The notes below the pieces were generated by a model. That model did not search any database and was not told the origin of the DNA. It worked only from the letters and a program-made list of their open reading frames with translations. A DNA stretch of 64,000 bases, from positions 51,584,001 to 51,648,000 of the forward strand of contig CM097882.1 in assembly GCA_044892505.1 (NCBI GenBank), written 5' to 3'. Of this stretch, positions 1 to 42,301 are shown one piece after another; position 1 is the stretch's first letter, and each line of letters begins with the position of its first letter. The translations under genes were made by a program, and so were the position numbers. The DNA is from Schmidtea nova (lineage: Eukaryota).

Positions 1-520
1 TCATCAATTAATGTACCAAATGTTAGAAGGATTAATTTTAGAGGGAGTGGTGGTTTACTTAGACGATATAATAATTTATGAACGAAATCGAAAAGAGCAC
101 AACAATATTTTCTGTAAAGTATTTAGTCACATAAAAGAAGCTGTATTAAAGAAAAGTGTCAATTCATTAAAGTGAAATGAATTTTATTGGACTTACTGTC
201 ATAAATAAAAATTTCCATAATAATAGGAATAAAATAAATTGAATAAAATTGGCTGTAGAGTCAAAATGTGTATCTCAACTTAGATCATTTTTGGGCTTGG
301 CAAATTATAATCTACGTTTTTAAAGGTTATTCGTGAACTGCAACGCCGTTTCACACTGCAACATTAGGTATAACAAAAGATTAATTTGGAATGATGATTG
401 CAATGCTAGTGTTAATAATGTTTAAAAAGTTCTATGAGAAGCTCCAGTGCTTGAATTTCCGATTTCAGACACAATTTTTATAATTAATACTGATTCCAGT
501 TTTGGGGCAATTGATGATGT
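1..520 (+). pseudogene. Degenerate Ty3/gypsy pol fragment (RT C-terminus to start of RNase H)
   Basis: Manual translation gives GVVVYLDD, SQLRSFLGLANY and NTDSSFGAIDDV. These match the RT/RNase H motifs of the gypsy copies at 30.6-32.8 kb and 40.2-40.9 kb. Many stops and frameshifts. Confidence 0.85.
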
Positions 521-2277
521 TGTAATGTTCTGTGGTCACACTAATCCATCAAAGAGTGTTTTGGAGTCTTTATGATTATGTCGATGTATTTGTTGTTTCA
601 TTGTATATTTTATACACCGTAATAGCTCTCGTTAGTAATGTTTGGATATTTTTTTTTAACTGTACGTGTTTATTTGTGTCCGTTTGAATTAATAATTGCT
701 AATTTTGATTAAATAAACTAATATGTTTGTTGATAATAACATGATATACTATGATTAGAGATGTTATAATCATTTAATGCCTTGTCTTATTTATATGTAA
801 TGTTGTGTAAATTATCTATGTAAAAATTTTGCAATACTTAGTATTTTGTCATTTTTATAAATAAAAAATAGTTGTTTAAAAGATGTTAGCGGATACCGCA
901 GAATAAAATTAAAAATATATCTTGATATTAAAAATTGATTATTGAAATATTATTTAAATACAATGTTGAATGATGAATATATAGAAGAATCAGAAAAGCG
1001 GTGTTTACGGTTCGCCTATATTACCGCTGATGATGATGCAAGATTTAAAAGATCAGTAAAGTACCTAGATCCGATAGAAGTAAAAAAAATCATTATGGAA
1101 GGTACGGATCTGTCGTTGCTACATTGGGTTGCTTTCAAAGGCTCAGTTGTAATTGTAAACTTTCTGATTGATAAAATGGAATTTCCTTTTGATCTTATAA
1201 TAATGCTGAGGTATGGACAACAGCCCATGTAGCTGTTATTGGTGGGAAAGATGCTTGCCTTGGATCACTTATTATGAGAAAACCAGAGGTTATCAATCAT
1301 CCTGATAGCAGGGGATGCACACTATTACATTTGGCGGTTGCTTATGGAAGATATCATTGTATGCACTATTTAACAAATTTTACAAGGGTGCTACCAAATC
1401 TAGATGCACAATGCAGAAACGTGTTTTGGACACCTTTAATTAATAATCTAATGCGTTTGATACCTGGTGATCGTAGTTTAAAAAGCCTCACAAATAATAC
1501 TAATAATCCCAACACGATATTTTTAAACTGTAATCCTGACGTATTTGTTTATTATATCTATTCTATAAACGATGTGACAGATGTATCACAATTAAAAATC
1601 GCCGTTACTGATATTAAAAAAATAACATTAAATATATGGTTTTATTCGAATTATGGAATTATGAATGGACCAGAATCAGACAATTATATCAACGCAATCC
1701 GATTTATTGGACAAGCATTTTCTAATAAGAAAGCCTTCAGTGGAACACTTCCTTATGAGATCCTTCTTGGGGGATTACCCGATGATTTCGATCGACCTTT
1801 GGTTTGGCCTGGAATTTATCTTATATTTCTATTTGGCATAACTGAGTGTATGGTAATAAATTTCCATAAATTGAATACAACTTATAAATATTCCAAAACA
1901 CCCAAATTTACCGCATTAGGATTAATAAACAATAACATTACAGTGACGAGAAACTATAATATCGATAAAATCACTTACGACGTACGTTTCTTGGAGCCAA
2001 ATAGATATAATGTTCTGTGCCTTTTAAAAATAATTATTTCAAAATATAGTCCGGTGATTCAAATTCAAAGTGAAAGTTCAATTCACAGTTTCAAGTCTCC
2101 ATACACAAATGCAGTTGCCAAGCAACACAAACTTCGTCCACCGGAACTCTACGAAGTATTATTGAATTTATTTGTAGAATTATTTAAAATTAGTTTCGGG
2201 GAAACAAAAATAAAATTGATGAATCGGCAACCACACCAAAAATCAGAATACCTTGGTGTGATTGCCGGTTCATCAAA
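521..2277 (+). mobile_element. ~1.76-kb insertion of unknown class splitting the gypsy RNase H motif
   Basis: The RNase H reading ...GAIDDV stops at 520 and resumes as V-LSQIKE at ~2283. GATGT flanks both sides (516-520, 2278-2282). The insert starts TGTAAT. No TIR or second LTR was found. Confidence 0.6.
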
Positions 2278-2287
2278 GATGTGTTAA
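963..2287 (+). CDS. Intronless ankyrin-repeat protein with an unrecognised ~250-aa C-terminal region; one frameshift near 1195-1200; 3' end cut by the junction
   Basis: Ankyrin motifs are LSLLHWVAFKGSVVIVNFLI, WTTAHVAVIGGKDACLGSLI (read in the frame of ORF 1274, upstream of its ATG) and GCTLLHLAVAYGRYHCMHYL. ORFs 942-1232 and 1274-2287 join by a single frame change. The stop (2285-2287) lies in flanking gypsy sequence. Confidence 0.75.
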
Positions 2288-2696
2288 GCCAGATAAAAGA
2301 AGCCAGAAGAGAAGTTCTGATTGCACGCATCAATGTGTTTGACAGCACATAAAACGGCATGATACGTTACAAAGAAGGAATAATTAGTTATTCATGAATT
2401 TATTGTGAATTTATTGAATTTATTATTGTTTACACAATATCTTCATGATAATAGATTCATTGCAAGATCAGATCATAACGCTTTGACTTTCATGAGCAAC
2501 ACAAAGAAACTAATTAGTCCGCAATTTCAGAGGTGGCTCGCTAACTTATCAAAAGATGATTTAGCTAAAATATCGGAAAGAAAATGATCATGAACATACA
2601 GGCGGATTTTCACGGATTCAAAATGATCTTTACTCGCAATGTGAAACAAGACATAAAAATACCAAAGAAGTAAAATCTAGAGTAAGGTATATAAAC
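2283..2696 (+). pseudogene. Continuation of gypsy RNase H remnant
   Basis: LSQIKE, RSDHNALTFMSNTKKLISPQFQRWLANLS (ORF 2405-2587) and the following C..H..K..K.R.RYIN tract, also seen in ORF 31350-31979. Confidence 0.85.
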
Positions 2697-30619: not shown

Positions 30620-32820
30620 TGAACATCACTCTCTTCCTCTTCATTTTCTTTGCATCTCTTCAGCCATTCAATTCTTTTTGATTCGATTGAGTTTGGAACA
30701 TGTCTTGGTGATAAGAATTTTAAGAATTTGTCATGTCCTTCATATTGGATTCCCTCCTTCTTTCGTCTAGTGGTTCCAAGCGAACTAGTACTTTCTCTCC
30801 CACTGTGAATACTCGAGTACCCCGGTGTTCTAAATCTCTATTTTGCATTGTTGTAGCTGCTTTCTCTAGATTAGACTTTGTTCTATCCACAATATCTTCT
30901 TTGCTCTTTTGTATATGTCATATTCTAGAATATAAATTAATCTTCTGACCGTATACAATTTCAAAAGGTGAGAAATTTGTTGAGATTTCTATTGTAGCAT
31001 TCAAATAAAATTCAATCTTTTCTAACGATCTGCACCAATTATTCTCTGTTCTAATCTCTGTCAATGATGTTGCCAACATATCCCGAACTGTTCTTATGAT
31101 TCGTTCTGTTAAACCATTTGATTGATGTTGATATGGTGAACTAAATTCTTGTTTTATACCAAATTTTTCCATCCAATCACGAAATATTGATCCTTCAACA
31201 ATTCTTCATCTATCTGTAAGAATGTTTTCTGGTCTACCAAAACGATATATCCAATTATTCAAAATGACATTCAAAATTGTTGATTCAACTTATGTACTTG
31301 TTGCTGATAAACTAACCAATTTACTAAAACGATATATTACCACTATCATTTATTTTTTAATTGATTTTGTCTCTATATATGCAATATCCACTACTATTTG
31401 TTCTAAAAACCGATCGCCTGTTCTTGGCAATAAGATTCCCTTTGTTTTTCCTTGATCAATCTTTCTACTAGCAAATATCTTGCATTTATTAATACATTCG
31501 GTAATACTTTGATTCATGGATGGCCAAAAGAAAACGACTTTTAAAAAAAATAAGGTTTTCTTAATACCCAGATGGCACAGTTCAATATGAAAATAATTTA
31601 CGATTGTCTTAACGCACGTGTCATGTAAAACAACTACAAGTTCTCCATCTGCATTAATCATCAAAACGCCATCTTGTATCTGTAATATTTTTAAATACTT
31701 GATTGTTTCATTAAGATCATTTTCATTAAGATGTGATATGATTTCTGAAATAACTTTGTTTTTGTTTTGCTTCTGTTTATTAATTTTCATAATATTTGAA
31801 CTTCCTTGTAGATTATTAATGTACCAAGTTCTACATCTTGCCTCTTTGACATCCTTGTGCTTCATCTGACAATGAGCGCATATGACATTATTTAAACGAG
31901 ACATACCATCCGCATTTCCATGTTCTTCTCCTTTCCTATATTGTAACTCAAAATCGTGTTCAGAAAAATTGCCATCCATGCCTGAAACTGTGGGCTTATT
32001 GGATTCTTTGTCATGTTCATAAACGTCAATGACTTGTAATCCGTTCTGGCTACAAATTTTCTTCCATATAAATATTGTCTAAATGTAAAATAAACTCATG
32101 AAGAGCCAACAACTCTTTTCTAGTAACACAATATCCCATTTCATGTGTTGTTAAATGCCTTGAACCATGTGCTATCACTCCTTCAGTACCGTCTTCCTTA
32201 ATCTGAGAAAAAACTGCACCTGTGGCTTCAAAACTAGCATCCGTATCAAGAATAAATAGTCGATCTGCCCTAGGAAATTTTAATATTGGTGCTTCACACA
32301 AGAGTTTCTCTAAATTTATAAAACTTTTTCTACATTCTTCAGTTCAAACAATAATTTTATCATTTCCTGTCGTTGTGGCATACAAAAGTGCTGCTATCAT
32401 TGAATAATTCTTGATAAACCTCCGATAATAATTCGTTAAACCTAAAAATGATCTCAATTCTGTAATACTCTTCGGTTCAGTTGCATTTTCAATTTTTGAA
32501 ATCTTTCCTTTATTTGTTTGAATTCCCTTTTTTCTAACTGTATGACAAATGAAAATTATTCGCTTTTATAAAACGCGCATTTTTCAGGATTAACTTTCAA
32601 ACCGGCATCTCTAATGAGTGTGAATACTTCAAGTAGAGGTTTATCATGAGTTTCCTGATTTTCAGCATATATTAAAATGTTATCAAGATACACAACCACT
32701 CCTTTGAAAATTAATGCTTCCAATATCTTATGCATCAGTTTCTGAAAAGTGGCAGGAGCAATTGACAAACCAAATGGTAGCCTTTTAAAACAGAATGGTC
32801 GTTCCCAACTCCGTTACACA
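30620..32820 (-). pseudogene. Degenerate Ty3/gypsy pol (RT, RNase H, integrase)
   Basis: APATFQKLM..GVVVYLDNILIY, FILDTDAS, RKELLAL, HIELCHLGIKKT, FSSPYQHQSNGLTER. Purine tract near 30625-30640. Confidence 0.9.
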
Positions 32821-39061: not shown

Positions 39062-42000
39062 ATAATTGGAAAAACTCCCAAATTATGAATTATTATAGTA
39101 TAAGTAGTATATTACCTATTATAGAGAATACATTAGAGAGCGAGCTAACAAACGAGGAAATGATATGCACAGCAAATAAAGTAAACATATTTTTGAAAAA
39201 GAATTGGAGAATCGCTAAAGGTAAAGGGAATGCGAATGATGGAAGTATAGATCTTATGGCTTTAGTTGAACAGAATCAGAACATAATAAGATATGACAGA
39301 ATGCAGGGCCGACCAAGTGTAACAATCAAGATCAATGGAGAAGTCATGGAGTGTTTATTGGATACCGGAGCAAGAATTAATGTTATGAGCTGGAAAAACT
39401 TTCAGAGATTACGATGGATTGAGTTGACACGGACAACAATAACACTTCGGTGTGCAAACGACGGAAAATTAGAAATAAAAGGTAGCGCAGAAATGAAAGT
39501 CAATTTGAATGGTATGGAGAGAAAAATACAGTTCACAATAGTTGAACAACTAACACCAGAGGTTATCGGAAGTATTGAGATGCAACGAAAATTTGGCATT
39601 GATTTACAGTTTAGTAATACTCAGGATGAAAGAGAGACGATCAACCACGTTGGGAACATAGAAGCCCAATTTGGGAGAGCTATCACAGAAGGAGAATGGT
39701 TTTAGAAGGCCAGAGACACGATGAAGATAAAAGACCCGAATATTATAGAATTAATAAGGAAGAATCAGAATGTGTTTATGGCAGATAAATGGGATATAGG
39801 ATGTACAATGTTATTGAAACATAGAATTGAGACACAAGGAGGACCGATAAATATTAGACCGTGGAGGCAACCGATCAATTTAGAAGGAAATATTGATGAG
39901 GTAATTAATAATCTGTGGGAGAATAACATTATCAAGAAGTGTAATTCTCCTTGGAACACGCCGTTAATTTGCGTGTGGAAAAAAAGAGAAACAGGATGTC
40001 AGGCTGTGTCTAGATTTTAGACAGTTAAATTTAGTAACGGTGAGACAGGCTTTCCCAATGCCAAATATATCAGAATTATTAGATAAACTGGGGGGAGCTT
40101 AGTACTTTACTTCGATTGACCTGGGTAATGCATACTATCAGGTTGAGCTGGATGAAGAATCAAAAGAAAAGACAGCTTTTTCAACGAAGGTAGGACAATT
40201 TTGTTTTAATAGAATGCCCTTTGGAATAGCGGCGGCACCAGGAATGTTTCAGGAGCTCATGCTGAAAGTGCTGGAAAATAGAGCTGGTACGGCAGTTTAC
40301 TTGGACGACATCTTAATATTCACAAATTCAATCAATGAACACTATCAAGTTCTGGATGACGTATTAAAGAGAATAGGGAAAGCTGGTTTGAGAATTAATC
40401 CGGAGAAATGCCACATTTTTAAAAAGGAGATAAAGTTTCTGGGGCACATCATAAATGAAAAGGGTATTCAGACCGACCCAGCTAAAACAGAGTCAATACG
40501 ATCGTTCCAAAGACCAAAATGTATCAAGAGTTTGAGAAGCTTCCTAGGAATATGTAATTATTACAGGAGATTTATTGAAGGATACTCAGAAAAGTCGAGA
40601 GCACTAGAAGAACTGTGTGGGAAGAATAAAGAAAAGAAACTAGTATGGATAGATAATTGCGATAGAGCGTTTACCGAGACGAAAGAGGCGTTGACGTCAA
40701 CACCAGTGTTAGGTTTTCCCGATGTCAATAAAGAGTTTATTTTAGATACAGACACCAGTTTTGGGTCAATCGGCGCTGTATTATCACAGTTAGACGACGA
40801 GGGAAATGAAAGGGTTATAGCGTATGGAAACAACCACGAAAAGGGATATTGCATAACGAGAAAGGAGTTATTAGCAGTTTACTATTTTTGACAGCACTTT
40901 AATCATTATCTGTACGGGAGAAAATTTACATTACGCACAGATCATAAAGCGATCATATTCATGTTGAAAACAAAAAAGCCGATCTCAGCACAATTCCAGA
41001 CATGGATCAACCTTCTCAGTAGTTTCGATATAAAAATAGAATACAAAGAATGGATAAAACACGCGAACGCAGATCTGTTATCAAGGAAGACATGTGGAAC
41101 GTGCACACAATGTTTATTAATACACGAAGACCCAAAAGAGGGTAAGCTAAAAACCAGAAGAATTAATGCGATAGATAACGATGAAAAGATCGAATGGCAA
41201 GAAAATAGTACAGAGATAAAACAAATAAAAGAAGAGATTATCCGAGATACGTCATGGAAGTTTATTCTGGAAAACGGTATAGTGAAAACAAAGGAAAGGA
41301 AAATATGGATCCCTGAATATAAACGCCAGGAAGCGATAAAGACATTCCACAGTTTACTTTCTCACGCAGGAGTCGAAAAAACGACATCGTATATGGGAAA
41401 CAACTACGATATGAAAAATATGAAAGAAATAGTAAAAGAAATTATTAAAAAATGTGAGCCGTGTCAAAAAGTAAAGGTAGTGACATCAACTACAAAAGAG
41501 GAAACCATAAAATTATCAGCAAGTGAGCCATTTGAGAAGATATATATAGATATATGTGGGCCTTTGCAAGAAACGTTTAGGAAAAAGAAATATATTGTTG
41601 CCATAATTGATCAATTTAGTAGATATATAGTACTAAGACCAGTAGCAAGACAAGATGAAGAGACAATAAAAGAAACTATCATGAGGGATTGGGTATTAAG
41701 ATTTGGAGCACCAATGGAAATCCATGTAGATTGTGGGAAAGTATTCGTATCGAGAGCAATATCAGAAATGACAAGGTCAATGGGAATAGAACTTTGCTTT
41801 TCAAGTCCATATCATCATAATACGAACCGTATCATAGAGAGACAATTCAGAACAATAAGGGATTACATAAATACGTCACTGAAGGAGAGGAAATAAACAG
41901 ATTGGGCAGAAATATTGCCAGAAATAGAATTTACACTGAATGCAACAATACAGAAGTCGATTGGTAAGAGTCCAGCAGAGGTAATATTTGGACGTAAAAT

Positions 42001-42301
42001 ATTTAGAGAACGATGGCACACAAGACCTGGACCACAAAAGAAAAAATCAGAGCTAAAAGTAGGAACACCTGAACAGATACCAACAAAGAGGTCTTTCAAT
42101 CAAGGAGAAAAAGTGCTAATCAAGGTAGAGTCAAGAACGAAAGAAAGAGATAGATATGAAGGGCCGTACGAGATTATTCAGAAAATACATGACAGGCGAT
42201 ATCTGCTGAGAGACAATTCGGGAAAGACAATACAGAGAAATGTTGAAAAGATGAAGAAATATTTTAAAGAAAGGGGATGTGATATGCAGTATATTGATTA
42301 A
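38998..42301 (+). pseudogene. pol: Gypsy Pol (protease, RT, RNase H, integrase) with several stops/frameshifts
   Basis: LLDTGA, YLDDILIF, FILDTDTS, HSLLSHAG..CEPCQ, YIDICGP, HVDCG, SSPYHH. Confidence 0.95.
39010..39051 (+). promoter_or_regulatory. -1 programmed ribosomal frameshift signal at the gag/pol overlap
   Basis: C CCA AAC heptamer in the gag frame (39010-39016), 6-nt spacer, perfect 8-bp stem GCTCCGAC/GTCGGAGC. The -1 frame is open from 38998 through the protease. Confidence 0.75.

Follow-up and report, generated by a model that had tools for sequence, protein, structure and literature searches.

Within a 64,000-nucleotide stretch of the Schmidtea nova genome (contig CM097882.1 of assembly GCA_044892505.1, positions 51,584,001 to 51,648,000; hereafter the window), the RNase H domain of a decayed gypsy element is interrupted by an insert that carries an intronless ankyrin-repeat open reading frame lacking a stop codon of its own. 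This raises the questions of what kind of DNA the insert is, how it came by ankyrin coding sequence, and why its frame has no end. The original prediction, made from the letters alone, saw in it a truncated piece of a cargo-bearing mobile element, an endogenous viral element or a horizontally acquired gene.

A complete solo LTR inside an older gypsy element

The insert, which reads TGTAATG...TTCATCAAA, has the length (1757 bp) and the GATGT flanks that had been predicted, and Pfam recognises RNase H on either side of it (Table 1). The flanking pol belongs to an unrelated, older gypsy, in which Pfam places RVT_1 at 2-175, RT_RNaseH_2 just 5′ of the insert and RT_RNaseH just 3′; tblastn of the inserting family's pol against this interrupted element gave no match. 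Contigs from two runs, X1 (100-568) and X4 (100-562), span the left junction with zero differences, and at the right junction an X4 contig reaches 30 nt into the insert, one nucleotide below our bridging rule; runs X1 to X4 (DNA or RNA) come from one study and may be the source sample itself. Elsewhere in the window, two gypsy pol-like remnants (39983-42265, plus strand; 30933-32795, minus strand) are 26-39% identical to the inserting family's pol. Upstream of the window, L021:3633-4514 (minus strand) holds a 294-codon frame resembling what we take to be a receptor transmembrane segment.

Table 1 Features of the insert and of its insertion target, in window coordinates.
Feature	Position	Strand	Remarks
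Decayed RT and RNase H start of unrelated older gypsy (insertion target, 5′ side)	2..520	+	
Target-site duplication, left copy	516..520	+	GATGT
Solo LTR, Ty3/gypsy family	521..2277	+	1757 bp, TG...CATCAAA, architecture C2
Non-coding 5′ part common to LTR architectures	521..907	+	putative U3/promoter
Conserved GCGG..CCGC block	889-899	+	closes non-coding 5′ part, then AATAAA 902-907
Captured host ankyrin exon 1	927..1311	+	about 36 nt of 5′ UTR, ATG at 963; 94.8-97.4% identity to L157/L175
Captured start of host ankyrin exon 2	1312..1437	+	41-nt GT..AG intron absent at join
Capture junction, host ankyrin gene/PSME4-type recipient LTR	1426..1437	+	12-nt microhomology
Remnant of earlier captured PSME4/PA200-like module	1426..1470	+	end approximate
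Older open-frame layers	1471..2153	+	nested breakpoints ~1590, 1676, 1884, 2089 common to other architectures
Conserved 3′ block of all LTR architectures	2154..2277	+	open in gag frame
Target-site duplication, right copy	2278..2282	+	
Remainder of interrupted RNase H (3′ side)	2278..2587	+	RT_RNaseH E 6.1e-6, 9.3e-7

Comparison of the insert with the genome (G000) returned at least 63 matches, with the best 40 of 1536 candidates scored. In 16 of the 20 loci examined, a copy with the same ends is flanked by its own perfect 5-bp duplication; one of the remaining four retains 4 of 5 duplication nucleotides, two are cut, and one (L017) lies behind a purine tract. The insert is therefore not the truncated piece that had been proposed, since both of its ends are common to many copies. 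With one complete LTR between the two GATGT copies and the internal region absent, it represents a whole solo LTR from a Ty3/gypsy family that was active recently, and the proposal of a cargo-bearing mobile element that inserted with target duplication holds in this form.

Several properties of the family identify it as an LTR retrotransposon. Genome-wide, we counted 819 LTR 3′ ends and 121 places at which the purine tract GGATGGGGGGTAA is joined to an LTR start, and neither occurs in reversed controls. The primer-binding site TGGTGTCAGAAGT begins one base past the 5′ LTR; a DNA transposon was ruled out, given the presence of both these signals and the absence of terminal inverted repeats. The primer-binding site presumably resembles tRNA-Leu, and ARAGORN found no tRNA gene for comparison in the loci analysed. 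Full elements, in which a direct LTR pair surrounds gag-pol between target duplications (e.g., L035, L037, L038 and L039), measure 8-9 kb, with an internal region of about 4.98 kb. Their LTRs end in TG...CATCAAA, while the canonical TG...CA termini are usual for Ty3/gypsy LTRs without being obligatory. Pairs of LTRs within 13 elements are 99.1-100% identical, and the family is therefore young. Solo LTRs account for 40 of the 54 LTRs having both ends in a sample of 60 ends, drawn from the top of the list for contig C1, loci already analysed being left out.

Pol spans 1165 codons, overlaps gag in the -1 frame, and is open in L029, L036, L044, L045 and L046; on L044 its order is protease-RT-RNase H-integrase (Pfam order, with the DSG motif for protease). 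By its two CX2HX9CX3C motifs in Gag (L044), its DSG, YIDD, DAS and GPY motifs, and its gag-pol overlap, the family may be described as CsRn1-like, a likeness to the published description of the clade that includes PwRn1 and AgCR (PMC2582038) and not a placement by phylogeny. It differs from PwRn1 as described there in the length of its LTRs (1.4-2.3 kb versus 381 bp) and of its duplication (5 bp versus 4 bp), and from the clade in that its LTRs are coding and end in TG...AA; a further feature of the clade is a tRNA-Trp primer-binding site. Like the planarian giant gypsy elements Burro/GYPSM1, as characterised in PMC6431247, the family is a gypsy with host-like domains, ankyrin among them. In that account the domains are part of ORF1 and stand behind an N-terminal Gag in elements above 30 kb (internal region >25 kb, multi-domain ORF1), whereas here the element is far smaller and the extra part lies ahead of Gag, in the LTR, where it is exchanged between subfamilies.

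Other arrangements of the family were also seen. Tandem elements with a common LTR occur at L043, L044, L045, L059 and L065/L066 with a period of about 6.6-7.0 kb, and at L064:4225-6103 and L069:8997-9398 LTRs of the family are inserted in reverse inside other family members. From L031:8892 onward, and at three similar junctions, the LTR end gives way to a longer stretch resembling the primer site (TGGTGTCAGAAGTGGGA...), and the DNA beyond that stretch differs; the stretches are possibly integrated copies of the 3′ end of the primer.

Spliced host 5′ ends stacked within the LTR

The reading frame had been described with fair accuracy. An AT-rich leader of 442 nt (GC 0.20-0.33 per 200-nt bin; about 440 bp had been estimated) precedes the ATG, from which the frame runs through the insert end without a stop and with a single break near 1196. 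Unbroken sister copies have 438 codons (L002, L003, L004, L006 and L010) or 439 (L013), close to the 440 or so expected, and the ankyrin repeats are recognised by Pfam both in L003 (Ank_2, E 1.5e-8, two stretches) and in the window's second frame (Ank_4, E 8.9e-5).

The origin of the ankyrin part was settled by a search that the original prediction had itself advised, for an intron-containing host paralogue; it had named a spliced host gene matching the ORF as evidence against its own reading. Such a gene lies at L157/L175 (G000, contig C1, 345.63 Mb), bears an intron, and has an ORF that continues past the captured part. Positions 927-1440 of the window are the spliced 5′ end of this gene: they correspond to its 5′ UTR, exon 1 and exon 2 start, and its intron is missing from the LTR copy. 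We detected the gene only with protein P0006 as bait; P0006, the closest full-length protein match (53%), departs at the same intron position as the host gene. Homologue searches with the ankyrin part, P0006 and the gag region gave no result, which is weak evidence as to extended Gags in other species. A host retrocopy had been thought less likely for want of a poly(A) tail. The tail is missing because capture was confined to the 5′ end of the mRNA, and the intron loss against a host gene at 95-97% identity overturns that judgement, although the insert is still no ordinary retrocopy.

The C-terminal region, which the original prediction could not assign, is a stack consisting of a PSME4 remnant and then older layers. 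The remnant was identified on the basis that the same stretch in another LTR (L095) aligns to PSME4 up to chain residue 284 (E 5.3e-15 for the L095 module); the window copy has one mismatch inside the microhomology at its junction with the ankyrin sequence. For the older layers the earlier verdict stands, as no Pfam family exceeded the cut-off there in six frames and none of the best 150 protein matches covers that part. The conserved 3′ block contains an AATAAA near 2209 and a long hairpin (2216-2276; -34.6 kcal/mol, z -7.55) that adjoins the LTR 3′ end and the primer site. The hairpin is nearly invariant across LTRs, and covariation gives no proof of it because there are almost no two-sided changes.

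It is extremely improbable that the insert derives from an integrated virus, from horizontal acquisition of an ankyrin gene or from truncation of a giant element. An origin of this kind would have room in the 3′ 700 nt of the frame, for which no source was identified, but the LTR ends are complete and carry duplications, the full element is known, and the intron-bearing host gene refutes the idea for the ankyrin part.

The ankyrin module is one of many. After removal of four mis-bounded LTRs, identical duplicates and short ones, 124 distinct LTRs longer than 1 kb fall into 21 architectures, which have the first 300-430 nt (in whole or in part) and the last 124 nt in common and differ in the middle; their gag-pol regions are about 91-97% identical where compared. 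The Met-led N-termini of open architectures include ankyrin, FMN reductase (Pfam E 9.2e-18), Med23 (E 4.1e-31), PSME4, a B-Raf-like stretch (E 9e-4), DUF5586 (E 2.5e-5, below cut-off) and several that are unassigned. Recognisable captured domains are each present in tens of copies; the modules are cut off within domains, and later captures overwrite them. Other modules, putatively adenylate-cyclase-like, ARM-like, ubiquitin-like and signal-peptide-like, had no match in Pfam or PDB, and a DUF3514 match (E 0.006-0.015, below cut-off) was taken as chance.

All three modules for which an intron-bearing source was traced (ankyrin, Med23 and FMN reductase) have lost their introns. The Med23 capture begins in the 5′ UTR of its source (L156) and joins seven exon pieces in the LTR, with six of six GT..AG introns gone, one of them 4262 nt long. 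The FMN reductase source (L085) consists of exon 1, a 48-nt intron and a partial exon 2, is near-identical to the LTR copy except for the intron, and has a paralogue (L079) with an intron at the same place. Microhomology was present, in frame, at both testable 3′ junctions (10 nt for Med23 and 12 nt for ankyrin). Sources of the PSME4, Raf-like, ARM-like and other modules were not located in the genome; the DNA searches for PSME4-type, ARM-like and ankyrin sources were filled by LTR copies (best 40 of 540, 162 and 206 candidates scored, respectively).

The order of the modules is regular. Captures begin just past the conserved GCGG..CCGC block, AATAAA and a TTAGTTA-like motif, a region that we infer to be U3/R, and the newest capture is always 5′-most, right behind this fixed promoter-like block. 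The 3′ parts that the window has in common with other architectures are nested, starting at 983, 1177, 1426, 1433, 1590, 1676, 1884, 2089 and 2154, as would be expected if every new capture displaced the 5′ part of the stack before it.

Further rearrangements were noted among the modules and their surroundings. At L085:4321-4683 the intron-bearing copy of FMN reductase ends within exon 2, beyond which lies unrelated coding-like DNA; the remainder of this source gene is absent within 30 kb around L085, and dispersed decayed fragments at L078, L080, L081, L086, L087, L092 and L093 match FMN reductase exon 2 only (79-88%). In L077, L090 and L091 an in-frame deletion removes most of the ankyrin module and keeps the FMN reductase start, and two of the three keep an open frame. 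The 5′ LTR region of a C1-type element (L073:1389-1868) contains a putatively ubiquitin-like peptide stretch, with no Pfam ubiquitin match, and an 815-codon frame with BRCA2 repeats (L025:3462-5906; E 5.3e-16) lies about 30 kb upstream of the L022 element.

An open frame that runs into gag

The ORF in the window has no stop because in 5′ LTRs this frame reads through into gag, crossing the LTR end, the primer-binding site and 142 further codons on the way. Among 29 elements with an LTR-gag junction, 10 have at least 300 codons in the LTR that read on to the gag stop, seven of these as single frames of 920-1025 codons; in the other 19 the frame is broken somewhere. None of the full elements found carries exactly the window's LTR (of the 15 C2 members, 14 have perfect duplications and one has 4 of 5 nucleotides), so its link to gag is drawn from sisters with a common 3′ end. 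These include full elements L060, L065, L067 and L070, whose LTRs share the window's 3′ part, and full element L017/L022 has the FMN-plus-ankyrin form as its 3′ LTR.

The frame is far longer than on the other strand or in shuffles: across 53 LTRs the longest plus-strand frame has a median of 388 codons versus 71 on the minus strand, and in 530 shuffles the longest frame averages 66 codons and never exceeds 122. A fully open member exists in 14 of the 16 multi-copy architectures, and the open architectures all end in the gag frame. Against this, none of the 16 copies of architecture C1 is open; they share 1-nt differences in two homopolymer runs. That these differences vary even within the LTR pair of a single element points to recurrent slippage, although the copies may have been moved by trans-mobilisation. 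In architecture C10 none of the three sampled copies is open, although frames of 470-505 codons contain many Med23 copies. In 3 of 13 open representatives, by a partly circular test, the first ATG past the conserved block does not lie in frame. In L044, 1801 nt and 40 ATGs, 25 of them out of frame, lie ahead of the gag Met. A second AATAAA stands near the LTR 3′ end in 74 of 124 LTRs and allows more than one placement of the U3, R and U5 limits. It seems likely that the frame is kept open by a reliance on borrowed start codons for gag translation.

We then evaluated selection by counting variants in eight clusters of LTRs, with those present in two or more insertions treated as shared. Shared variants in the LTR ORF comprise 229 nonsynonymous (N) and 92 synonymous (S) changes, compared to a neutral expectation of about 240 to 81, and there are no stops among these 321 changes where 14.8 would be expected (Poisson 4e-7); some variants are counted twice because clusters C0, C3 and C4 share modules. 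Private variants comprise 548 N, 192 S and 17 stops versus 33.8 expected, a shortfall which indicates that the stop expectation is inflated; the direct comparison of stops between shared and private variants gave a Fisher P of 0.005. Shared indels of 57 and 285 nt in the ORF and of 15 nt in the leader are multiples of three; against this, a few 1-nt indels are common to two or three copies in the C5 ORF, the leader and pol. For substitutions, the corresponding ratios across 21 elements are 0.09 for gag from its conserved Met and 0.16 for pol, with 0.69 for the leader. The LTR ORF is thus near-neutral in its amino acids yet free of shared stops, and gag and pol are purified.

This pattern bears on three other readings of the open frame. 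First, the captured domains could act as proteins, for example as ankyrin, Raf, Med23 or PSME4 decoys that manipulate the host cell. That the domains are recognisable and abundant would suit such a role, as would the regulatory domains reported for ORF1 of Burro elements (PMC6431247, as summarised there). We nonetheless judge it improbable, given that shared variants have a pN/pS of 0.76-1.28 in five clusters with a computable ratio and over 10 shared changes, and of 0.68 in a further one, C7, that ankyrin exon 1 differs from the host by 3-8 N and 2-6 S changes per copy, and that modules are truncated within domains and overwritten. Second, openness might be a neutral leftover of coding exons in a family too young to lose its frames, as the near-identity of LTR pairs and the native openness of each piece would allow; this we regard as more improbable still. 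Independent junctions and deletions would be in frame only a third of the time, yet an open member exists in nearly all multi-copy architectures; the frame extends, moreover, across the primer-binding site and the codons behind it, and shared changes include no stops.

Third, an open frame could shield the RNA from nonsense-mediated decay or from piRNA processing of an untranslated leader, with Gag starting internally or from a spliced RNA. Strong constraint does start only at the gag Met, and in a Drosophila reporter, as described in 10.64898/2026.02.07.704324, translation cut piRNA output by up to 8-fold. Shielding alone does not obviously need the gag frame, yet every open architecture ends in it, and we consider this reading unlikely, if the least so of the three.

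A probable borrowing of start codons from host mRNAs

The explanation that best accounts for these results, and which we regard as probable, is that spliced host 5′ ends are captured serially in the LTR, stacked in one frame that continues into gag, and filtered by that frame. Reverse transcriptase would switch onto co-packaged host mRNAs. The cargo would be part of R/U5, past the transcription start, and stand at the 5′ end of the genomic RNA; from the primer site the enzyme would have to copy more than 1 kb of R/U5. During this minus-strand strong-stop synthesis it could switch onto an mRNA at a microhomology, copy it to its 5′ end and then return to the element. Both LTRs would inherit the capture, and the new 5′ UTR, AUG and N-terminus would come first on the genomic RNA. 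A leader of 1.8 kb with 40 ATGs would block scanning to the gag Met, so that ribosomes would reach Gag only from captures in the gag frame; Gag and Gag-Pol would then be made as a fusion from the captured AUG, and captures would propagate only where translation can proceed from the borrowed AUG into Gag. The window copy would have arisen by LTR-LTR recombination after insertion and would now be decaying.

Elements of this scheme are known from other systems. MMTV sag and HIV nef are located in U3. Like these two genes, and like the extra ORFs Retrosat2 ORF0 (PMC3485330) and bdelloid ORF3 (PMC5408684), the present frame is additional coding capacity in or near long LTRs; as those ORFs are described, they are separate and stable, whereas here host 5′ ends form a stack in the gag frame that keeps turning over. 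LTR-mediated retroposition is documented in animals and for maize Bs1 (Tan et al. 2016, PMC5131818), and the retrocopies described there are likewise partial spliced mRNAs, with microsimilarity at switch points, multi-gene chimeras and further rounds of copying. In that description capture replaces internal ORFs and yields non-autonomous elements, whereas here the cargo sits inside the LTR, is serial, occurs in both LTRs, is dispersed by solo LTRs, and leaves gag-pol intact; in all three traced cases it is the mRNA 5′ end with its AUG.

A further parallel is the start-snatching of cap-snatching RNA viruses (Ho et al. 2020, PMC7323901), in which host 5′ ends and start codons also come to stand ahead of the element's ORFs and give N-terminally extended hybrids. 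As presented there, the viral form is transient, short and made at each transcription, while the extensions here are hundreds of bases long, were probably made by reverse transcription, and are inherited in the LTR. On balance we lean towards a heritable start-snatching, in which an autonomous retrotransposon would translate Gag and Pol from host-derived start codons and 5′ UTRs that are repeatedly replaced at one LTR slot, and in which hundreds of solo LTRs would scatter promoters joined to stopless host N-termini. A search of openly available full-text literature, judged by titles and abstract openings, found no serial 5′-end capture inside an LTR in frame with gag; PMC11410931 mentions LTR/gypsy expansion in general terms. 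Capture of spliced mRNA by LTR elements is already known (PMC5131818), and serial capture within the LTR in the gag frame appears to be new, to the extent of that search.

Such a family would represent a way of capturing genes in which the element stays autonomous and the filter is the reading frame, not protein function. Its LTRs would form a dated record of co-packaged mRNAs and template switching in an animal germ line or stem cell, and would offer a test in natural sequences of Gag translation behind long leaders and of the frequency of template switching onto host mRNAs. Solo LTRs are also expected to give rise to false gene models, as illustrated by more than 30 Med23-like matches. Lastly, each solo LTR, as a putative promoter followed by an open, stop-less host N-terminus, may be a source of chimeric genes.
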